30,383 nt of DNA from a virus (Duplodnaviria > Caudoviricetes): positions 1 to 30,383 of the IMG/VR virus record IMGVR_UViG_3300025608_000066. The stretch is one strand, 5' to 3'. The notes under the pieces were generated by a model, which searched no databases, had not been told where the DNA came from, and worked only from the letters and a program-made list of their open reading frames with translations. This document shows, piece after piece, positions 1,164 to 29,174 of the stretch (the first letter of the stretch is position 1; every line of letters starts with the position of its first letter). Made by a program: the position numbers and the translations under genes.

Positions 1164-2477
1164 ATGGCAAAGATCACAATTAAAGGCGATACTAGCGGTG
1201 AAGTAGATATAGTAGCACCTGCCGTTGCAGGAACGACTACTTACAATTTATCTACAGCAGGTGGTGATATCCTTGCAACTGGTGATATTGGAGTAACAGT
1301 TCAGGGGCATGATGCTACAATATTAAAAAGTGCAGATATTGGAACATCTGTACAAGCACATGATGCAAATATTGCAAAATATAATGATCCAGTTGCAAAT
1401 TTTACTGGCACATTTCAGCATAATGGAAATCCAGTTGCAACACAATCTTATGTAGATTCAGGACTTTCTGGTGTTTCAGTTACGCCAGATGCTATTTCAG
1501 ATCAAAATAACACATCTACAGGTTATTTTAAATTACCCACAGGAACAGCGTCACAAAGACCTTCATCTCCAGTTACTGGTCAAACAAGATATAACACAGA
1601 ATTAGAATCAATCGAGTTTTACAATGGATCTGAATGGAGAAGGGTGAAAGATTCTACAGGATCTGTATATATGTTTGGCGGTGTAGTTTTTGAAGCAGAT
1701 GGATATAAATACCATCAATTTACATCATCAGGCACATTAAATGTTTCATTTGCAGATAATGCTTCAGTTGAATACTTAATTGTTGCAGGTGGTGGTTCTG
1801 GCGGAAACCAGAGTGGAGCTCATTATGGCCCTGGCGGAGGTGGTGCAGGAGGAATGAGAACAGGGACTACAACTGTTAATACTGGAAGTGTTTTCACTAT
1901 TACTGTAGGTGCAGGTGGAGCTGCTATTCCACAAACTAACTCAAGCGGAAACAATGGTTCTAATTCTGTTGCTCTAGGAATTACATCAACTGGAGGAGGC
2001 GGTGGTGGAGGCCCAAGCGGTACTTCAAGAAATGGTGGTTCTGGTGGTGGTGGTTGTGCAGTAGGACCTAACCCAGGCTCTGGTACTTCTGGACAAGGAA
2101 ATTCGGGAGGTAATGCTTATATTGGATCAACAAATAACCGAGGTGGTGGTGGAGGCGGTGGTAAATCCGCAGTTGGTTCAAATGCTGTTAATGGTCCTCA
2201 AGCAGGTAATGGTGGTTCTGGTGCATTAGCATTTGACGGAAATTATTATGCAGGCGGTGGAGGTGGTGCAACATCTAATAGTACTGCTGGATTTGGTAAC
2301 GGTGCAGGTGGTATTGGTGGTGGCGGATCAGGACAAAACAATATTACATTAAATGCAGTTTCTGGAGCTACTAACACAGGAGGAGGTGGTGGAGCCCATG
2401 GTAACCAAAATGGTACTGGTGGATCATCATCTGGAGCAGGTGGATCAGGAATGGTTATTATTAGATACCCAATTTAA
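1164..2477 (+). CDS. Glycine-rich tail fibre/adhesin
   Basis: LPTGTASQRPSSP-TG-RYN motif. C-terminal Gly-rich domain bounded by EYLIVAGGG and GSGMVIIRY. Confidence 0.75.
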   Translation: MAKITIKGDTSGEVDIVAPAVAGTTTYNLSTAGGDILATGDIGVTVQGHDATILKSADIGTSVQAHDANIAKYNDPVANFTGTFQHNGNPVATQSYVDSGLSGVSVTPDAISDQNNTSTGYFKLPTGTASQRPSSPVTGQTRYNTELESIEFYNGSEWRRVKDSTGSVYMFGGVVFEADGYKYHQFTSSGTLNVSFADNASVEYLIVAGGGSGGNQSGAHYGPGGGGAGGMRTGTTTVNTGSVFTITVGAGGAAIPQTNSSGNNGSNSVALGITSTGGGGGGGPSGTSRNGGSGGGGCAVGPNPGSGTSGQGNSGGNAYIGSTNNRGGGGGGGKSAVGSNAVNGPQAGNGGSGALAFDGNYYAGGGGGATSNSTAGFGNGAGGIGGGGSGQNNITLNAVSGATNTGGGGGAHGNQNGTGGSSSGAGGSGMVIIRYPI

Positions 2478-2489
2478 TTAAGGAACAAA

Positions 2490-4025
2490 ATGGCAACAAT
2501 AATTAACGGCACAACAGGTATTGATAAAATACAAGATGAAGTAGTCATTACTGGTACTGGTGGGGTTACTGTGCCTTCTGGTACAACTGCTGAGAGACCA
2601 TCAAGTCCATCAACTGGGATGTTGAGATTTAATACCGATAAGAACATTTTAGAGCAATATAATGGAACAGTATGGAGAGAAGGTTATTCTCCTGCTCCAG
2701 AAATTACATCTGTATCACCTACTGACTTTGATGGTGAATCTGGAACTACTATTACAATTAATGGCAATTATTTTAGTTCAGGTGCAGTAGTACAATTTAA
2801 GAAAACTGGCGGAAGTTATGCAAATGGTACAAACATATCATTTGTAAACTCAAACCAAATAACTGCAGATACTCCAGAAGATTACGATCTAACAGAATCT
2901 CCAGTATCAGTAAAAATTGTTCAAGATTCAGGTAGTGATGAATCAGTAGATGCAATTACAATGGGTGCTGCTCCTGCATGGTCAACTGCATCAGGTAACT
3001 TAGTTACAGTTAATGAAGGTTCTGCAGTAAGCACATCTGTAACAGCAACAGATGATGGTTCTATTGCATCTTATACAGTAACATCAGGTGCATTACCAAG
3101 CGGAGTTACATTAAATACATCAACAGGGGCGATAACAGGAACTGCTCCTGCAGTTGCATCTAATACACAATATGATTTTACAATTACTGCTACAGATAAT
3201 GTAGGTAACACAACTGCTAGAGATTTTAATATTATTGTTAACAACATCAACTATACTGCAGAAGCAATTATTGTTGCAGGCGGAGGTGGAGGTGGTTCTG
3301 GTGACGGAGGTGGCGGAGGAGCAGGCGGATTCCGTTATACATCAACATTAGTTACTGTTGGTTCTGGTTATTCTGTTGTTGTTGGTGGAGGTGGGACAGG
3401 CGGGGTTGGTGAAGGCCCAACTGTAACATCTACTAATGGTGCAAACAGTTCTGCATTAAGTATTACATCTACTGGTGGTGGTCGTGGTGGTCAAGAAAAC
3501 AATCGTAACGGCGGATCAGGTGGATCAGGTGGTGGAGGTGGTGGTGTAAACGCCTCTGGTGCAGGAGGCTCAGGAACATCAGGACAAGGATTTGCAGGAT
3601 CTGCAAACTCTACACCTAATAAATGTGGTGGTGGGGGTGGAGCATCACAAGCAGGTGCATTATCTGGTGGCGGTAATGGAAATAACACATATTCTGCATG
3701 GGCAACTGCAACATCTTCTGGTGCAAGTGGATATTATGCAGGAGGAGGTGGCGGTTCATCTCGTGATGGCGGTGATACAGGAGGTGGTTTAGGTGGCGGA
3801 GGTAACGCACCTAACTCTTATGGAGGTAATGGTACTTCTGGTACTGTTAATACAGGCGGTGGAGGTGGGGGTTCAGGTGACCAAAACACAACTGCAGGTG
3901 GCGGTGGTAGTGGTATTGTAATTATTAGAACTCCTGACACAGCAAGTGGTTCAGGTGGAACTGTCTATGTTTCAGGTGGATATAGATATCATAAATTTAC
4001 AAGTTCAGGAACATTTACAGCATAA
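2490..4025 (+). CDS. Glycine-rich adhesin with IPT/TIG and putative Ig-like domains
   Basis: PEITSVSP...ITINGNYF (IPT/TIG). GALPSGVTLNTSTGAITGT (He_PIG-like). Gly-rich C-terminal domain. Confidence 0.75.
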   Translation: MATIINGTTGIDKIQDEVVITGTGGVTVPSGTTAERPSSPSTGMLRFNTDKNILEQYNGTVWREGYSPAPEITSVSPTDFDGESGTTITINGNYFSSGAVVQFKKTGGSYANGTNISFVNSNQITADTPEDYDLTESPVSVKIVQDSGSDESVDAITMGAAPAWSTASGNLVTVNEGSAVSTSVTATDDGSIASYTVTSGALPSGVTLNTSTGAITGTAPAVASNTQYDFTITATDNVGNTTARDFNIIVNNINYTAEAIIVAGGGGGGSGDGGGGGAGGFRYTSTLVTVGSGYSVVVGGGGTGGVGEGPTVTSTNGANSSALSITSTGGGRGGQENNRNGGSGGSGGGGGGVNASGAGGSGTSGQGFAGSANSTPNKCGGGGGASQAGALSGGGNGNNTYSAWATATSSGASGYYAGGGGGSSRDGGDTGGGLGGGGNAPNSYGGNGTSGTVNTGGGGGGSGDQNTTAGGGGSGIVIIRTPDTASGSGGTVYVSGGYRYHKFTSSGTFTA

Positions 4026-5872: not shown

Positions 5873-7057
5873 ATGACAATGCAAAGTAGCGGAACAATTA
5901 GTCTTAATGATGTTAATTTAGAGCTAAGAAATTCTTCACTTACAGCAATTAACATTAATGATGCAAGTGTCAGAGGTCTAGCAAATAAAACTAGTGGTGC
6001 AGTATCATTTACTAACTTTTATGGTAGAAATTTTGACCTTAGAGGTCAACAAGCGTTTACTACAACTGGATTACACTCATGGGTTTGCCCATCTAAAGTA
6101 AACACAGTACACGCAGTATGTGTTGGTGGTGGCGGAGGTGGTGCTGGTTCTGGTGACGGTGGTAACGGTGGAGGCGGTGGAGGTCTTGGTTGGAAAAACA
6201 ACATCTCAGTAACTGCAGGTCAAACATACTATGTCTATGTTGGTATAGGCGGTAGTCCTAATAGTTTAGTAGATGGTGTAGGTAGTTTATTTATTACTAC
6301 AGATGCTTTTACCATTTCATCATTCTCTGTTAGCTCTAATGTAGTTACTGTTAATACAGGATCTAATCACAGTTTTGAAACAGGAGATACTGTATCTGTA
6401 GACTGTTCGTTTAGAGAAATTAATGGAACATTTACTATTACTAAAGTAGATGCTAATACATTTACATACAGTAAAACATTTCAAAACTACTCTCAATTAT
6501 CTGTTACTGGTATATGCTTTGCAGGAAGTATTATTGTTAGAGGTGGTGGTGGTGATTCAGGCTTAGGAGTAGATGGTGGATTTTCATCACCTGCAAACAC
6601 TATGGTTGGTGGTACATTTACTGGTGATGGTGGCGGTAATGGTTCTACACAAGCTGGTAGAGATGCTTCTACTGCAGGTGGCGGTGGCGGAGCAGGTGGT
6701 TACGATGGTAACGGTGGCTCTCAAACTGGAGGTTGTGGCGGTAATGGTGCGGCTTCTAACTATCGTGGAGGCGGTGGTGGAGGTGTAGGTATTTACGGTG
6801 AAGGTGCATCAGGTGCTAATGTCGGTGCATATGCAGGTGGTGGTTACGGTGGATCAGGTGGTGGTAGAGGTGGAACACATGACTGTAACACAGGAACTTG
6901 TGGATTAGGTGGTTCATATGGCGGAGGTGGCGGTGGTCACGATTCATATAGTGCAGCTTCTGGTTATCAAGGTGCAGTAAGACTTATTTGGGGTGAAACA
7001 AGAGCGTTCCCTATAACACAAACAGCAGATGTTACAGCAGGTGAGGTATATAGTTAA
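5873..7057 (+). CDS. Glycine-rich fibre-tip adhesin with an inserted beta domain
   Basis: N-terminal SSG.ISL...NFYG cap. Gly-rich domain (VCVGGGGGG...GAVRLIW) interrupted by HSFETGDTV...INGTFTIT..D.NTFTY. Confidence 0.7.
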   Translation: MTMQSSGTISLNDVNLELRNSSLTAININDASVRGLANKTSGAVSFTNFYGRNFDLRGQQAFTTTGLHSWVCPSKVNTVHAVCVGGGGGGAGSGDGGNGGGGGGLGWKNNISVTAGQTYYVYVGIGGSPNSLVDGVGSLFITTDAFTISSFSVSSNVVTVNTGSNHSFETGDTVSVDCSFREINGTFTITKVDANTFTYSKTFQNYSQLSVTGICFAGSIIVRGGGGDSGLGVDGGFSSPANTMVGGTFTGDGGGNGSTQAGRDASTAGGGGGAGGYDGNGGSQTGGCGGNGAASNYRGGGGGGVGIYGEGASGANVGAYAGGGYGGSGGGRGGTHDCNTGTCGLGGSYGGGGGGHDSYSAASGYQGAVRLIWGETRAFPITQTADVTAGEVYS

Positions 7058-8822: not shown

Positions 8823-8975
8823 ATGGATAATATTGTACAGTATTTTACAAGAGAAAATAAAGACGGTCAGTTGGTTATCACTAGAAATACAACTGATGGG
8901 GTTTCTTATACTTTCAATGTTGAAAATGATCCTGATGAATACCAAAAGTATTTGGAATGGCAAACAAAACAATAA
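8823..8975 (+). CDS. Small hypothetical protein, 50 aa (not in ORF track)
   Basis: MDNIVQYF...DPDEYQKYLEWQTKQ. Fills the gap between two genes. A YQxYLEW ending is common in phage tail-region microproteins. Confidence 0.6.
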   Translation: MDNIVQYFTRENKDGQLVITRNTTDGVSYTFNVENDPDEYQKYLEWQTKQ

Positions 8976-9442
8976 TAGATAACTTTTTAAGTCATGGTGA
9001 TTTTGAGGCCATGAAGATGTTATTTACTGACAACCCGTACTTTTCTTGGTTTTATCAGAATGGTAAAGAGTATGCAAATGATGATTTCTTTCAGTTTACG
9101 CATATCTTTTATAGTAACCACAATCCTAATAGTCAGCAATACAAAGAACTAAAACCTTTTTTAGATAAGTTGCAAGTCAACGCACTAATTAGAATAAAGG
9201 CTAATCTAACTGGTAGAGAAAATAGTATAAGGTTAGGTGAATTTCATACAGACTCATTATTTAAATGCAATACTGCAATATGGTATCTAAATACCAATAA
9301 TGGAAAAACTGTATTTGAAGATGGCGATGAGGTTGAAAGTGTAGAAAACAGAATGGTGATATTTCCTTCTAAAGAAAAACATACTGCAACTACACATACA
9401 GATACAAAGACTAGGATTGTAATTAACTTTAATTACCTATGA
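8957..9442 (+). CDS. 2OG-Fe(II) oxygenase family protein
   Basis: HxD (FHTD), distal His (KHTA) and Arg (RIVINFNY). YLNTNNG.T.F and ENR.VIF motifs. Confidence 0.85.
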   Translation: MANKTIIDNFLSHGDFEAMKMLFTDNPYFSWFYQNGKEYANDDFFQFTHIFYSNHNPNSQQYKELKPFLDKLQVNALIRIKANLTGRENSIRLGEFHTDSLFKCNTAIWYLNTNNGKTVFEDGDEVESVENRMVIFPSKEKHTATTHTDTKTRIVINFNYL

Positions 9443-10649: not shown

Positions 10650-11401
10650 TGGGTGCTCCAGTATTAATAGGTGCAGGTATAGGTGCTGCTACATCTTTAG
10701 CTTCAGGTGGCAATCCATTACAAGGTGCTTTATTAGGTGGTATTGGTGGTGGTACATTTGGTGGATCAGGTGCATTAGGATCTGGTTTTACAGAAGGCGG
10801 TTTATTTAGTTTAGGTTCTGGTTTAACAGGTGCAGGAACTGTAGCAACATCAACTCCAACATTAGGTGGTTTAGCATTAGAAGGGGCTACAACTGGTGCT
10901 GTAGGTGGTGCATTATCAGGTGGTGGTGCAGGTGCTGTTTCAGGTGCTACAGCTAGCCCATACGCTTTTGGTAATAACGCACTAGAAGTAACAGGCAATA
11001 CAGTTAATCCTGCTTTAATTGGATCATCTGCTGGCGGTCAAATACCATTTACTGGTGTAGATAAAGCAATAGATGCAGTAACACCTAGTGGCGGATTTGA
11101 TCCAGATGGTAACTTTTTAACTGATATGTTTAGAAGAGACCCAGTAGGATCATCAATGTTAGGTATGTCTGCAGCACAAAACATAATGAATCCTACAGGT
11201 GCAGGAGTGCCACAACCAAATGTTGGTTCTATTCGTGCAGGATCAATTGATCCAACACCTGACAAGCCAGTCAATGTATTGAGTCCAGCAGACTACGGTA
11301 CAGATTTGGCAACAGATGAAATTGGTGTGACAGGCGATATATATTCAGTATTTCCAGAACGACTAAAAGGTTTTGGTGGTCGTGGAATGTTTTATAGATA
11401 A
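10649..11401 (+). CDS. Internal virion / DNA ejection (pilot) protein
   Basis: Gly/Ala hydrophobic N-terminus with glycine-zipper-like pattern. Coupled to the previous gene. Confidence 0.55.
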   Translation: MGAPVLIGAGIGAATSLASGGNPLQGALLGGIGGGTFGGSGALGSGFTEGGLFSLGSGLTGAGTVATSTPTLGGLALEGATTGAVGGALSGGGAGAVSGATASPYAFGNNALEVTGNTVNPALIGSSAGGQIPFTGVDKAIDAVTPSGGFDPDGNFLTDMFRRDPVGSSMLGMSAAQNIMNPTGAGVPQPNVGSIRAGSIDPTPDKPVNVLSPADYGTDLATDEIGVTGDIYSVFPERLKGFGGRGMFYR

Positions 11402-18709: not shown

Positions 18710-18862
18710 TTATTCCTCAAAAATAATTTTATTATCTGGAAACATCTTATATGGTTTTAATGTAATAGAGTCTATTACCTCAATACGGATACTGCCATCA
18801 CCTTCTTTAAATACAGATAGGTCATAGTGGGTTCCATCAATTATCAGTTTTCTTGTTTTCAT
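18710..18862 (-). CDS. Small hypothetical protein, 50 aa
   Basis: MKTRKLIIDGTHYDLSVFKEGDGSIRIEV... Tiles the leftward operon. Confidence 0.55.
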   Translation of the reverse strand: MKTRKLIIDGTHYDLSVFKEGDGSIRIEVIDSITLKPYKMFPDNKIIFEE

Positions 18863-18995
18863 TGCAATATCCATGTGCTGCTAAGTTAATGTGGCACCAC
18901 CACTTTTGACGATCATAAAACTTTGCTGGCTTGCCACAGCTTGAGCAAACTTGGCCAAAAGTATTTTGGGTGGTGTATTTTTTTTTAGTCTTCAT
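18837..18995 (-). CDS. Small Zn-finger-like protein, 52 aa
   Basis: CSSCGKPA...WWC...H..C. Confidence 0.55.
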   Translation of the reverse strand: MKTKKKYTTQNTFGQVCSSCGKPAKFYDRQKWWCHINLAAHGYCNENKKTDN

Positions 18996-19257
18996 CGTGA
19001 AGTGGATCTTCTACCCACTCAGTTGGCATTACTGGAGATGACTTCTTCTTATCTAATTCATCAGCTAGGTCTAGTGCATACCAAGCAATCTTACGAAGCT
19101 CTTGAGACCAAGCATCTTTATTACCTAGTCGTTCTGAATACTTCATTAAATTTCCTTTAACATAAAACTTGTAATTGTCACCAAGCTTTGCTTTAATCAC
19201 ATCTATAGTTTCTATCCCACCCACTTTATAGTGATCAGGATTTATCATATCACTCAT
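18985..19257 (-). CDS. DUF3310 family protein
   Basis: INPDHY..GGIETID...GN.MKY..R...K...L.KI.WY. Confidence 0.85.
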   Translation of the reverse strand: MSDMINPDHYKVGGIETIDVIKAKLGDNYKFYVKGNLMKYSERLGNKDAWSQELRKIAWYALDLADELDKKKSSPVMPTEWVEDPLHDED

Positions 19258-19481
19258 GACTGCTCCTCAATAATTAACATACCTTTATCATAATCACAGG
19301 AAAATTTCTTAATTCGTGTATAAACAAATCCTTCATCTTTAACCTGTGCTAATAATTTACCTTTATGGCAAACTAACTCTTTAGGCTCAACTGGTAAAGC
19401 CATATAATACTGTAATAATATACCAATAATTAAAAATACCACAATTATCAGTAAAACATAACTCCAGATTTTACTTAACAT
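19254..19481 (-). CDS. Small membrane-anchored protein
   Basis: N-terminal TM helix, 2 Cys, RBS GAGGA. Confidence 0.6.
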   Translation of the reverse strand: MLSKIWSYVLLIIVVFLIIGILLQYYMALPVEPKELVCHKGKLLAQVKDEGFVYTRIKKFSCDYDKGMLIIEEQS

Positions 19482-19500
19482 AAAATAATTCCTCGTTGTC

Positions 19501-19533
19501 TTGTAGTTTTGAGCTTATCTGTATAATTATAAT
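19501..19533 (+). promoter_or_regulatory. Putative sigma70 promoter for pqqA
   Basis: Tandem TATAAT at 19522-19527 and 19528-19533. -35 candidates (TTGTAG, TTGAGC) have non-ideal spacing. Confidence 0.45.
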
Positions 19534-19565
19534 TGTAATGCAATTTATTTAGAAAGGATAACATT

Positions 19566-19637
19566 ATGTGGACAAAACCATCAGCAACAGAAATGAGATT
19601 TGGCTTTGAAGTAACAATGTATGTTTGTAACAAGTAA
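19566..19637 (+). CDS. pqqA: Pyrroloquinoline quinone precursor peptide PqqA, 23 aa (not in ORF track)
   Basis: MWTKPSATEMRFGFEVTMYVCNK, with MWTKP, RFGFEVTMY and the E-x3-Y pair. RBS AAAGGA upstream. Confidence 0.96.
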   Translation: MWTKPSATEMRFGFEVTMYVCNK

Positions 19638-19640
19638 AGT

Positions 19641-19671
19641 TTAACGGGGAGCATTAAACCCTCCCCATTAA
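19641..19671. terminator. Hairpin directly after pqqA (possible terminator)
   Basis: TTAAcGGGGAG-9nt-CTCCCCaTTAA. U-tails are weak on both strands. Confidence 0.55.
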
Positions 19672-19836
19672 TCTTTCATACATTACTGTATTATTCTTTA
19701 TCCACCTAAAAGGTATTTCAACCTTTAACATTCCAACATGATGTCCTGACCTGTGATGCCATAATACTTGTGCTTGGTCAGGTAACATATGCCTATTTTC
19801 TTTAGGTATAAACCTAATAACACTAGAAGGGAACAT
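19654..19836 (-). CDS. Hypothetical protein, 60 aa
   Basis: Probable start MFPSSVIRF overlaps the end of the upstream gene. Its stop lies in the pqqA hairpin loop. Confidence 0.45.
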   Translation of the reverse strand: MFPSSVIRFIPKENRHMLPDQAQVLWHHRSGHHVGMLKVEIPFRWIKNNTVMYERLMGRV

Positions 19837-20107
19837 CTTCCACCAGTTCTTGCTGAGGTGCTGATGCTTCACTTGCTGAGTCGCTATGGAATACTCTAAC
19901 ATTTCCAAGTATAGGTGTCTGGACACCAGCTTCTCTTTCTTCTTTTGTAACTGACTGGCTAATAAATCCATTGTTGTCATATTGATCTTTATTATCAGTA
20001 TCAATAAAAGTTGTTAGATCAAGATATGTACCTTTAGAACCCTTGTACAATTTTTCTTTATCAATCTTAGTTACATCTATTCTTACGCTTACGCCTAATC
20101 TGGCCAT
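19823..20107 (-). CDS. Putative single-stranded DNA-binding protein
   Basis: Short beta-rich protein with the acidic SSB-like tail VEDVPF. Lies in the recombination operon. Confidence 0.55.
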   Translation of the reverse strand: MARLGVSVRIDVTKIDKEKLYKGSKGTYLDLTTFIDTDNKDQYDNNGFISQSVTKEEREAGVQTPILGNVRVFHSDSASEASAPQQELVEDVPF

Positions 20108-20118
20108 ATTATTTCTCC

Positions 20119-20841
20119 TTAAAAAAATCTTACTTTGTTACTCTTACTTCTTTTGAAATTATAAATATCTTCAATCAAAATAAGGTAACCTTTAACATCT
20201 GTACAGTCCTGAAGTTTTACCGACTGGAAAGACAGCTTATTCAAAAACTCAACATGACTATAGTCTGAATTTTCAAATAATTCCAACATTGCATAAACAA
20301 AATACCTACGCTTATAACCTTCGTAGTATTCTCTAACCATGCAAATTTTTTCTGCATTTTTAACAGCTAGATCATAATCTTTAATCTTAAACACACCGTC
20401 ATTAAAATCGGTATTTTTTGATCCAGACATTCTAGCCCTATTAGTTAAAATAGCATTTGTTTCATTGTGACCAAAGCCATAATTTCTTTTAAAGTTACGA
20501 TAAGTTAAATAATCTTTTAAACCTAATTCGCAATAACCTTGCATATATTCTTCAGCAGTCCAGTTCTTAGAATTAGTATTTAATCGATGTACATCATCAA
20601 GGTTAAGGTTTCTAACCTTAATATAATACACATATTTTCCTAACTCTTTTGCAGCCTCGAATCGGTGCTGTCCATCTATAATTTCATAGTGTTGGTTTAC
20701 AATGATTGGAACTTCTATATATTTTTCTGACATAGACTCAGTAAGTCTTTTTAAATGCAGTTTATTTATATTTCTATTTCCATTCATATGCTTAAACATA
20801 GAATAATCATTGGTCTTTAAGACTTGATTTACTTCTTTCAT
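20119..20841 (-). CDS. ParB/Srx-like N-terminal domain protein
   Basis: GNR...PIIV...IIDGQHR..A motif. Confidence 0.7.
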   Translation of the reverse strand: MKEVNQVLKTNDYSMFKHMNGNRNINKLHLKRLTESMSEKYIEVPIIVNQHYEIIDGQHRFEAAKELGKYVYYIKVRNLNLDDVHRLNTNSKNWTAEEYMQGYCELGLKDYLTYRNFKRNYGFGHNETNAILTNRARMSGSKNTDFNDGVFKIKDYDLAVKNAEKICMVREYYEGYKRRYFVYAMLELFENSDYSHVEFLNKLSFQSVKLQDCTDVKGYLILIEDIYNFKRSKSNKVRFF

Positions 20842-20843
20842 AC

Positions 20844-21419
20844 TTATTTCTCCTTAGTATATTTAGGTTTCCTCTTGTAACGAGGGGGTTCAACATCATC
20901 GTTCACAAATTGGATAAACTCTTCCATCTTCGGTAAATACCAATCCATAAACTTACTATCATATGGAACATACTCACGATGAGTTTCATGAGGTGTCCAT
21001 ACATAAAACCAGCCACCAACAGTCCCTGATACAAAACACTGCATCTGTATCTGAAACCAATAGCGTTCTGGAATCTCTGGGTATATCTTTTGGGTAAACG
21101 GGCATTTTATTTCAACAGGAATCCATTGATCATAAGCCTGATAAAATATGAACGCATCAGCCGATGCTCCGCAAGGCAAAAAGTTATGGACAAGTAATTT
21201 ATTACCTGCTTTGCATATTTGATCCATCTCATCTTCAAACGCTGCAAGAGCAATAGGCTCGTTATCGAGACCCCACTGAGTCATAATATTGCCAGAAAAT
21301 GGTTCTGCACGACCAGTCTTTTCCCTCCATAACTTTTGTCTTTCGTAAACAGCCGACCATGCTTGGCTGGCTGTCACGATAGAATTACGAAGTTTTTTAT
21401 TACTAAGATGCGAACTCAT
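20844..21419 (-). CDS. YqaJ/lambda-exonuclease family recombination nuclease
   Basis: TAS, WG..NE, GASAD, EIKCP and Y..QIQ.Q motifs. Confidence 0.88.
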   Translation of the reverse strand: MSSHLSNKKLRNSIVTASQAWSAVYERQKLWREKTGRAEPFSGNIMTQWGLDNEPIALAAFEDEMDQICKAGNKLLVHNFLPCGASADAFIFYQAYDQWIPVEIKCPFTQKIYPEIPERYWFQIQMQCFVSGTVGGWFYVWTPHETHREYVPYDSKFMDWYLPKMEEFIQFVNDDVEPPRYKRKPKYTKEK

Positions 21420-21939
21420 CAGTTTTCTCTCTAATTTGATTTCTAGTTTCTGGTTTTAATTTATACCAGTATTTTAATTTACCATCTTTTGAGAGTTCTT
21501 TTAAAATACTAATGTGATCGTCAATACTTCTAATATCTTCTTTAGGCTGAGGCTTAGCTTCAGGTCGATCAATCTCATCTTCTGAATAGATAAAACCATG
21601 CAGGCCTAACAGTTTAAGAACAGCTCGATCAACTGCTCGTTTTTCTGCCATTGCAACTGTATAGCTGTTTTTACAATTGTGAGGTGCTGCTTCACCATAT
21701 GTAGTCACAGTTTGATCTTTTAATTTTGCTACACATTTAATTACAGCAATTTTATTTTTAGTATCAAACTCTACTTCATGTAACTCATACTGGATATTTT
21801 TTTGTGCTGCAGCAATCTCAATCCACTTGTGATACATAACCCAAGTGCCATGACAATCCCACAAACATTCTTTCCAGTCGAAGCCTTGCTTTTGCAAGAC
21901 TTCTTTTACTCTATCATCTATTTTTTTCTTAGCGGCCAT
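21403..21939 (-). CDS. Putative single-strand annealing recombinase (SSAP)
   Basis: GEA...AMAEKRAVDRAVL motif, adjacent to the exonuclease. Start MAAKKK follows RBS GGAG. Confidence 0.6.
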   Translation of the reverse strand: MAAKKKIDDRVKEVLQKQGFDWKECLWDCHGTWVMYHKWIEIAAAQKNIQYELHEVEFDTKNKIAVIKCVAKLKDQTVTTYGEAAPHNCKNSYTVAMAEKRAVDRAVLKLLGLHGFIYSEDEIDRPEAKPQPKEDIRSIDDHISILKELSKDGKLKYWYKLKPETRNQIREKTDEFAS

Positions 21940-22072
21940 CGTTTTGCTCCAGTTCTTCTTGTTCTTGTTGTTGTCTTTCTCGGTCATCCATTCTAGCACC
22001 AAGCTCTATTAACTCGTTAGTAAGTGACTGGATCTCCCAAGTGATATATTCAAATTTTTCTTTTTGGTTCAT
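21929..22072 (-). CDS. Small helical protein, 47 aa
   Basis: MNQKEKFEYITWEIQSL... ATGA overlap with the upstream gene. Confidence 0.5.
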   Translation of the reverse strand: MNQKEKFEYITWEIQSLTNELIELGARMDDRERQQQEQEELEQNDGR

Positions 22073-22329
22073 ACTGATCTCCTTACAGCTTCATCTTTAA
22101 GATACTCAATAGTATCGCTGTCAAGTCTTGATAATACACTTAACCCATTTGAGAATGGTGTGATATCACTTTGATCGTCAACTTCTACATCTTCTAAGTC
22201 AACAATAAGTTCGGTAGGATAACCTATTTCTTTTATTTCTGATATGTTTGCAAACACTTGGATGCCCAAATCAAACTCACGATATTTGTCTTCTACTGTG
22301 ATTTCTGTGTTAAATATTACTTGTTCCAT
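22069..22329 (-). CDS. Acidic hypothetical early protein
   Basis: First gene of the leftward operon, RBS AAGGAG. Very rich in D and E. Confidence 0.65.
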   Translation of the reverse strand: MEQVIFNTEITVEDKYREFDLGIQVFANISEIKEIGYPTELIVDLEDVEVDDQSDITPFSNGLSVLSRLDSDTIEYLKDEAVRRSV

Positions 22330-22366
22330 AAATTTCTCCTTTGTTAAAATAAATGTTACATATACG

Positions 22367-22396
22367 ACTATACACTATATTTTATTTTTGTGTAAA
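22367..22396 (-). promoter_or_regulatory. Leftward sigma70 promoter
   Basis: TTTACA-18 nt-TATAGT. Confidence 0.55.
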
Positions 22397-22418
22397 ATTA
22401 TTTTGTATATAAAATTAG

Positions 22419-22447
22419 TTGACTCTACATCTATAAACTGATAAATT
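22419..22447 (+). promoter_or_regulatory. Rightward sigma70 promoter
   Basis: TTGACT-17 nt-TAAATT with TGn extension. Confidence 0.6.
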
Positions 22448-22487
22448 CTCAAAAGGTAAAAACTTTTTTAACTTATTTGGAGACAAC

Positions 22488-22652
22488 ATGAATTACCAAG
22501 AAGCAATAAATAGGTTTGATGGAAACATTAGTGCAATGGCGCGAGCTTTAGATGTATCCAGACAAACCATATACAATTGGGCCAGCGAAGGCGAGTTACC
22601 AAAACATAGGGCAATGCAACTTGAATACTATCTACAGACTACAAGCGTTTAG
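22488..22652 (+). CDS. Cro-like HTH regulator, 54 aa (not in ORF track)
   Basis: ISAMARALDVSRQTIYNW...GELP..RA.QL. RBS GGAG. First rightward gene. Confidence 0.85.
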   Translation: MNYQEAINRFDGNISAMARALDVSRQTIYNWASEGELPKHRAMQLEYYLQTTSV

Positions 22653-28457: not shown

Positions 28458-28722
28458 AAAAGCTGCTGAGAAGAATAAGGGAAATACCCATTCTAGTAAA
28501 AAAAATAGAATATGGGGTGATATTATTCGTAAATTAGCCGTTCAGGAAGATTACAAACGGTTACATGAAATTGCTCATGCTTTATATACAAAAGCATCAG
28601 AGGGAGACATGACAGCAATTAAAGAGCTTGGTGACAGACTAGATGGAAGAGCCGTACAAGAATTAAAAGGTGACTCTGAAAGTCCAGTTATAATTAAAGT
28701 GAATACTGGTATAGAAGACTAA
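28411..28722 (+). CDS. Probable terminase small subunit
   Basis: L..KA.EGDM.AIKELGDRLDGRAVQ. Upstream of TerL. Confidence 0.65.
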   Translation: MERSESQKKQLEEARKKAAEKNKGNTHSSKKNRIWGDIIRKLAVQEDYKRLHEIAHALYTKASEGDMTAIKELGDRLDGRAVQELKGDSESPVIIKVNTGIED

Positions 28723-29174
28723 TGTTATTTTATACATACGCTCACTACAATAAAGACAATAAGCCTATATATATTGGTAAAGGAACTGGAGACAGAGCAT
28801 ATACCAAACGAGATTATGGCGAAGAATATATTGTCAAAATTATAGATGATAATTTATATGAAGCAACAGCATTAGAATTAGAATCATTTTTAATTGAGCA
28901 AATTGGTATAGATAATCTTTATAATAAAGTTGATAACGGTAACAAAGGCAGACAGTTTTTTAAAATAGATTATAAAAATCCATATGATTTTTTAAACACT
29001 ATTGATAAATCAGATACCAGATTAACTCATAACATTATTAAACAATTTTATAGAGATGCTTATCGTGGCAATGTAGATGCGATATTGTTTATATTTAACA
29101 ATTTGCCATCTTACGAACAACCTAAAATCAATGACTTACTTCAGTCATACTCTGGAAAGTCATGGAAGAAATAG
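28722..29174 (+). CDS. GIY-YIG-like endonuclease
   Basis: FYTYAH...PIYIGKG...R...A.ELE..LI...LYN. Confidence 0.75.
   Translation: MLFYTYAHYNKDNKPIYIGKGTGDRAYTKRDYGEEYIVKIIDDNLYEATALELESFLIEQIGIDNLYNKVDNGNKGRQFFKIDYKNPYDFLNTIDKSDTRLTHNIIKQFYRDAYRGNVDAILFIFNNLPSYEQPKINDLLQSYSGKSWKK

Follow-up and report, generated by a model that had tools for sequence, protein, structure and literature searches.

The pqqA locus and its phage

The window, which is the whole stretch of 30,383 bases that was analysed, carries a pqqA gene at 19566..19637 on the + strand, where 72 bases encode a 23-aa PQQ precursor peptide recognised by family profiles. The gene and its peptide were exactly as given in the original prediction, and the ORF scored above the curated cut-offs of both PF08042 PqqA (E 3.2e-11, 43.3 bits; Pfam cut-off 21.1) and TIGR02107 (E 7.9e-12, 44.7 bits; NCBIfam cut-off 20). 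PHROGs had no family for the peptide. The Glu-x3-Tyr core was intact near the C-terminus (Glu15, codon 19608-19610, and Tyr19, codon 19620-19622, of 23 residues) and the peptide was 95.7% identical to the Venkman copy. The resemblance to Methylophilaceae PqqA was borne out by the profiles and by the phage and host sequence matches, and the ORF was confirmed by its sequence as a true, intact pqqA. The Glu and Tyr of PqqA are joined by PqqE with PqqD, after which PqqF/G, PqqB and PqqC finish PQQ (PMC10906245), so that one PqqA peptide is spent per PQQ.

The leftward ORFs around pqqA spanned 18710-22329 (3.6 kb, first noted as 3.7 kb) and pqqA lies antisense in this early block. As had been predicted, it was the sole convincing + strand gene there, since the other + ORFs of at least 50 aa in 18710-22329 were two TTG-started shadow frames. 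The predicted lack of pqqBCDE also held, with no tblastn match to PqqB, PqqC, PqqD or PqqE within the 30,383-base window, and the gene is a stand-alone copy and not a full pqqABCDE operon. A 60-aa leftward ORF (19654..19836, - strand), with homologues 35-50% identical in relatives, converges on pqqA and is followed by a 94-aa gene with an acidic tail (19823..20107, - strand) that is labelled SSB-like by inference, with no Pfam match, and that served as an anchor of the unbiased search described below. On the other side, the next leftward gene (19254..19481, - strand; 75 aa, no family) diverges from the pqqA promoter. The wider viral flanks were holin, M15 endolysin and phosphoesterase on one side, and YqaJ, Cro and helicase on the other. 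The gene is therefore a host-type metabolic gene with viral genes on both sides, also in cultured isolates, which is the context of an AMG.

By protein similarity, the window contig is a Venkman/MEP301-like phage. Its stabilisation protein had its best match in Venkman, a cultured OM43 phage (63%), its helicase had top matches in an uncultured virus (49.7%) and Venkman (43.8%), and its phosphoesterase was 79% identical to that of MEP301. The contig ends inside the terminase, and the portal, capsid and surroundings lie beyond its end. A Cro-like gene (22488-22652, + strand) diverges from the leftward recombination block (22069-22652) in a lambda-like layout, and neither CI nor an integrase was found among the window ORFs scanned (30 ORFs for integrase). 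Other features of the contig were a 150-aa ORF just before the terminase (28722-29174) with low GC and weak matches to GIY-YIG/homing endonuclease, three glycine-rich tail-fibre-like ORFs (1164-4025 and 5873-7057) with related repeated C-terminal parts, and a 2OG-Fe(II) oxygenase-like gene (8957-9442) within the structural module.

An assembly chimera, named in the original prediction as a way in which it could fail, was contradicted by 13 other contigs that share the same junctions, and two RNA-library contigs that run from pqqA into the adjoining gene also count against it. Small parts of the window were contained in five RNA libraries, as contigs without strand. Those covering pqqA were 19521-19711 (X1, 3 differences) and 19536-19734 (X3, no differences), and both may be DNA. 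The pieces of X1 and X2 lie across much of 20 kb at low depth and so may be DNA, and in X3 the pqqA piece stood alone in 20 kb, but that run had been chosen by that stretch. Host-type pqqA contigs were far deeper than the phage pieces (2,181 vs 2-3 in X2), which gives no hint of a shortage of host message, depth being a poor measure. RNA runs with a small share are no evidence of habitat. The X1 and X2 contigs left the window at 10858 and 22083 with the same loose ends, which suggests variant alleles in close relatives.

Distribution and conservation of pqqA in phages

A search of 50,697 phage records gave 12 matches, namely Venkman, MEP301, MEP401, MEP402, P19250A, four Melnitz, one uncultured virus and two 'Acinetobacter phage' contigs. 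The same query found 56-65% identical PqqA on plasmids and is thus not blind to other PqqA types. None of the matching cultured-phage records had pqqA annotated, though the gene was present; the expectation that gene callers miss it therefore proved right for all six identified cultured Methylophilaceae phages, beside which other isolates may exist. The known OM43 isolates are given as Venkman, MEP301, Melnitz and MEP401-402 (PMC13037479, 2026), and all five as well as the freshwater phage P19250A carry pqqA. The PqqA of these cultured phages was 72-96% identical to that of the window, whose position 21 is Cys and not Met, a feature shared with some small-genome host copies. In Venkman and MEP301, pqqA is antisense among leftward recombination genes, as in the window. 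In Melnitz-1 and the uncultured virus (records MZ577095.1 and MW202481.1), an opposite-strand hypothetical CDS, or antisense shadow frame, was annotated over pqqA. One of the two 'Acinetobacter phage' contigs was opened (CAKLQF020000010.1, 'Acinetobacter phage MD-2021a') and showed a chromosomal pqqABCDE operon beside ppk, which looks bacterial.

The Methylophilaceae-type motif was present in an estimated 2,300 or so IMG/VR stretches, as judged from a partial scan. A full IMG/VR scan for the Leu-Arg pattern gave 37 loci, with Phe next in 33 and Leu next in 4; none had the Ile of the Acinetobacter peptide and none lay beside pqqB-E. These 37 viral loci (L454-L490) thus have other PqqA types, with Leu-Arg-Phe or Leu-Arg-Leu before GFE, and their hosts may be other methylotrophs or methanotrophs.

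Neighbouring genes were used as search anchors so that the presence of pqqA was not selected for. With the phosphoesterase as anchor, pqqA was found in 53 of 80 loci, in 40 of the 41 with at least 3.5 kb downstream and in all 37 that reached the replication genes beyond the site. All 53 copies were on the lysis-gene strand, 1.4-5.5 kb from the phosphoesterase, and the genes between therefore turn over. With the SSB-like gene as anchor, the raw count was 13 of 80 loci, which corresponds to 13 of 17 true relatives; the remaining four related loci end 114-563 bases past the anchor, and the 63 loci set aside were unrelated higher-GC phages without pqqA that share the SSB with or without holin or DUF3310. 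The anchored loci are related and partly redundant, and one (L254/L538) is nearly identical to the window. The comparison of related phages that had been proposed thus gave the same position and orientation in 37/37 spanning loci, which makes pqqA a core gene of the group amid neighbours that turn over.

The Glu-x3-Tyr core was intact in 119/119 viral copies, which had been found by their first ten residues alone, with one truncated locus dropped. Among 108 distinct DNA sequences there was synonymous variation at most codons, and residues 13-15, 17, 19 and 22 and the stop were invariant with varied codons. This pattern points to purifying selection on viral pqqA.

Regulatory features of the cassette

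A ribosome-binding site, AAAGGA, was located at 19553..19558 (+ strand), 7 bases before the ATG and in a stretch that is purine-rich in aligned relatives, in agreement with the predicted RBS. Of the two TATAAT boxes in the original prediction only one was upheld. The box at 19522..19527 (+ strand), a likely sigma-70 -10 element without a consensus -35, was invariant in 9/9 aligned loci, whereas the second at 19528-19533 varied among them. An exact TATAAT was found 18-70 bases before the start in 49/50 group loci (shuffle mean 5.6) and, in the same span, in 132/296 viral vs 0/169 host loci. A promoter scan called none at the cassette, where there is no -35. The hexamer was rejected as a phage-wide promoter signature, as its 33 sites in the window were mostly within genes and patternless. 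On the - strand of the window, 19531-19526 could be a divergent -10 of the next leftward gene that overlaps the box, but it was variable among relatives.

Host pqqA upstream regions share a 16-bp dyad with the consensus TCATGAAAATCATTAG. A degenerate copy, likely an activator site, lies at 19463..19478 in the window, 59 bases before the TATAAT and overlapping the first codons of the next leftward gene. The cassette had been predicted to span 19490..19675, and the gene does lie within these bounds; the upstream limit was set too short, as the cassette reaches back to 19463. The dyad matrix was trained on host DNA only, so that the host loci, of which 112/168 reached at least 9 bits, are its training set, and viral loci were scored independently, with 88/298 at that score (shuffles 0.7). 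The window dyad scored 1.1 bits, which 0.035% of window 16-mers reach, at the modal offset, and 13 of its 16 bases agree with a common host form. Among cultured phages the score was 22.4 in Melnitz, 12.0 in P19250A, 9.8 in MEP301, 7.7 in Venkman and -5.5 in MEP402, which is without the dyad, and only 10/52 group loci reached 9 bits.

In hosts, a TAnnnT hexamer follows the dyad at 60 (35/96) or 59 (10) bases. The viral dyad to TATAAT offset was 59-61 in 49/134 loci and 37-38 in 17/134, the latter equal to the host's second half-site, and no further offset in the range 30 to 79 had two cases. Activator-dependent promoters have such a layout, in which a dyad near -65 and a half-site near -40 occur without a -35. 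Relatives differ in where the next leftward gene starts, yet keep the motif in place, which argues for a constraint at the DNA level. In relatives whose peptide has a Met-Asn-Lys tail (L572-L617), the box was at the proximal offset of 37, not 59.

Within 41 host genomes, 47 of 82 exact dyad sites were at most 260 bases from a pqqA, and the remaining 35 were about as many as in a reversed-pattern control (31). The host dyad lies ahead of pqqA, and has a half-site 23-24 bases beyond it, in Methylophilaceae, Methylophaga and some Burkholderiales (for example G002:C1:416025, 457622 and 1186146; G006:C1:359407 and 1193478), and it is near background elsewhere in OM43-like genomes. A shared methanol regulon of pqqA with the dehydrogenase was rejected: no dyad was found at 8 bits upstream of xoxF in five loci, which leaves co-regulation with the dehydrogenase unsupported. 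The ORFs listed for 8 host loci showed no evident regulator gene beside pqqA. The literature searched gave no description of a promoter motif for pqqA in Methylophilaceae, although further papers may have one; Ge et al. 2015 is said to be a study on MP688 pqqA promoters. The regulation of dehydrogenases, not the dyad motif, is the subject treated in PMC11845868.

A hairpin (19636..19676, core 19646-19666) lies between pqqA and the convergent leftward gene, the last codons of which are inside it, and is a likely terminator, possibly in both directions. The predicted downstream hairpin was recovered in that it folds on both strands (core z -3.0 on + and -5.1 on -), but the terminator scan did not call it, as its U-tails are weak. 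It beat all 30 shuffles in 41/42 group loci, with differing stem sequences. Among the relatives with the Met-Asn-Lys tail, its sequence often comes from the final codons for the acidic tail of the convergent gene.

A putative 59-codon antisense 'bridge' ORF (19475..19654, - strand) starts in the hairpin loop over the upstream stop and ends over the ATG of the next gene. In 90 viral loci pqqA was embedded between leftward genes, 32 of them with and 57 without an in-frame bridge ATG, and the bridge frame was open to the next gene in 19/32 with the ATG (7 and 2 for the other frames) vs 5/57 without it. After clustering, these became about 9/19 vs 2/23 (p 0.011), and the bridge frame gave p 0.023 against both alternative frames pooled and 0.17, not significant, against the better one. 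Across pqqA itself the frame is open trivially, because third positions coincide. The coupled form was absent from all 167 host loci, and Venkman, unlike the window, is missing the bridge ATG. There is thus modest support for an antisense ORF that spans the cassette in a subset of relatives including the window. As a conserved protein the ORF was rejected, with a C-terminal part that is not conserved and the p of 0.17 against one alternative frame after clustering. It could possibly act as a ribosome bridge over the inserted unit, which is less likely than not.

Overall, the window has the features by which a stand-alone pqqA transcription unit was defined in this analysis, namely a dyad about 60 bases before the -10, here degenerate, an RBS and a downstream hairpin. 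The stand-alone pqqA copies on Methylophilaceae chromosomes are alike in peptide type, in the order RBS, gene and hairpin, in their distance from pqqB-E and in a dyad 59-60 bases before the -10. The phage copies differ from them in the exact TATAAT, the more degenerate dyad, the AGA codons and the antisense position in a viral operon.

Host, proposed role and alternatives

Among 80 titled loci, the cells carrying the peptide motif were mostly Methylophilaceae and Methylophaga, alongside a number of Burkholderiales and other MAGs. One Nitrosomonadales genus, taken as OM43-like, was represented by 41 small genomes (0.7-1.4 Mb), of which 39 had pqqA, 25 of them in three copies, and some copies end Cys-Asn-Lys like that of the window. 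The hosts of its relatives, the distribution of the peptide motif in cells and these Cys-Asn-Lys copies make an OM43-type host likely; the predicted Methylophilaceae host thus finds support in the kinship with Venkman and MEP301 and in the small-genome copies. PqqE was above cut-off in 4/5 host genomes and a PQQ alcohol dehydrogenase in 5/5. In OM43, xoxF is the top transcript (PMC5120137).

The phage pqqA probably adds the consumed precursor under a host-type promoter and so sustains PQQ for XoxF in an infected OM43-type host. The dyad would bind a host activator, after which host sigma-70 polymerase would transcribe the phage pqqA as it does host copies, and the consensus -10 and genome replication would raise its output. 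The phage peptide would then feed the host PqqB-G and give extra PQQ, and methanol oxidation by XoxF would be kept up during infection. Methylophilaceae have 3-12 pqqA per genome and usually one pqqB-G set (PMC4109929); as hosts keep this many pqqA against one pqqB-E, PqqA is seen as the one dose-sensitive part, and its 72 bases are proposed as the least costly means of acting on the main energy enzyme of the host. Several points count against this role. PQQ is a reusable cofactor and a gain within one lytic cycle is therefore not obvious. In Acetobacter, PQQ rose by only 29% with extra pqqAB but eightfold with the whole operon (PMC7936290), and overexpression of the whole operon in Methylovorus gave a limited PQQ gain (cited in PMC9851590). 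The low score of the dyad in the window, its lack in MEP402 and upstream of xoxF, and the deep host-type pqqA contigs of the RNA libraries weigh the same way.

A broader reading, which is tentative and somewhat short of an even chance, is that nearly all Methylophilaceae phages, in at least four unrelated lineages, would have pqqA as a core gene. It would be carried as a portable promoter-gene-terminator unit that keeps a pqqA-specific host activator site at host spacing together with a perfected -10, and that taps a host PQQ-demand signal, to be amplified as phage genomes multiply. The early operon of the marine clade would read across the unit by way of a translated antisense ORF that starts in the terminator loop.

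PQQ made from the phage peptide may instead serve redox protection of the infected cell or a different PQQ enzyme, or be released to nearby cells that will become hosts, which is unlikely. The sequence evidence for a processed substrate fits this just as well, additional PQQ-family dehydrogenases occur in some hosts, OM43 medium was supplemented with PQQ (PMC9004378) and the dyad is not common to xoxF; however, three OM43-like genomes had a single PQQ alcohol dehydrogenase above cut-off and the gene occurs almost only in methylotroph phages, not in those of other PQQ makers. It is quite unlikely that the cassette is a sink, in which PqqD/PqqE, the PqqF/G protease or SAM would be sequestered by excess peptide, or the activator would be drawn off by the replicated dyad, so that host PQQ synthesis is shut down or redirected. 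The consensus TATAAT of the phages, absent from hosts, would suit such a sink, as would a dyad that multiplies with the phage genome, but an inhibitor would be expected to lose the Glu-x3-Tyr core in at least one lineage, the most frequent peptides are the same in viruses and hosts, and the dyad is weaker, not stronger, in phages. Highly improbable is a cis-regulatory unit in which antisense RNA and hairpin tune the early operon and the bridge ORF carries ribosomes across: the antisense orientation fixed in the group, the stronger hairpin on the leftward strand and the frame more often open in loci with the bridge ATG are in line with it, but in P19250A, MEP402 and Melnitz pqqA points the same way as its neighbours, amino acids and not bases are conserved, and most embedded loci (57/90) are without the bridge ATG. 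Finally, it is hardly credible that pqqA arose as an attachment-site duplicate, came in recently as a passenger or is host contamination, a reading already largely refuted, for while tiny conserved multi-copy host genes may be plausible integration targets and 5/296 viral genes were identical to a host gene base for base, the window pqqA matched its best host copy in 64/72 bases (longest exact run 23) and Arg was encoded by AGA in 83/296 viral vs 0/169 host copies, both of which point to long residence in phages, pqqB-E adjoined pqqA in 0/80 wide viral vs 21/80 host loci, no integrase was present in the 30 ORFs of the incomplete window contig or the 70 annotated genes of Venkman, and cultured isolates have the gene.

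The earlier report of viral pqqA mentioned in the original prediction is real (Lake Baikal, Coutinho et al. 2020, PMC7678222). That study likewise described a viral PqqA, in the T4-like VP_266 with a predicted Methylophilaceae host, and proposed a boost to methanol oxidation. VP_266 is a single T4-like population, uncultured, in which methanol dehydrogenase is encoded as well, whereas the present contig is a small Venkman-like phage that has pqqA as a core gene, alone in the part seen. P19250A is described there as having none of the putative AMGs of that study, whereas pqqA was found in it here; one supplement of PMC7678222 made no mention of pqqA. Viral PqqA is also among the viral genes of PMC13188868, on one 2.5-kb contig (Table S4). 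The main text of the isolate papers PMC8163748, PMC10580990 and PMC8024684 contained no 'pqq', and PMC9004378 names PQQ as a medium component only, with none in 3 supplements. The global AMG survey PMC11360552 and PMC12361551 had no pqqA, although supplementary tables could list more viral copies. Viral pqqA with a methanol-oxidation proposal has therefore been known since 2020, and its core status in a phage group and the retained host promoter motif are new.

In cyanophages, psbA is likewise a small or high-turnover host part kept by unrelated phage lineages. A further example is nblA (PMC12695635). Both are of the enzyme or adaptor type, whereas PqqA is a consumed substrate, and the phage pqqA offers a testable case of a virus that supplies a consumed peptide substrate instead of an enzyme, for which the cultured phage and host pairs Venkman/H5P1 and MEP301/HTCC2181 are at hand. 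The upstream dyad is a lead to the regulator of pqqA in Methylophilaceae, and the PqqA motif can serve in practice to mark the host of thousands of unassigned viral contigs. Among methanol oxidisers of coasts and lakes, OM43 and Methylopumilus are abundant, and a 72-base gene that is unannotated yet fixed across the cultured phages of the family points to a limiting supply of PQQ in infected cells.
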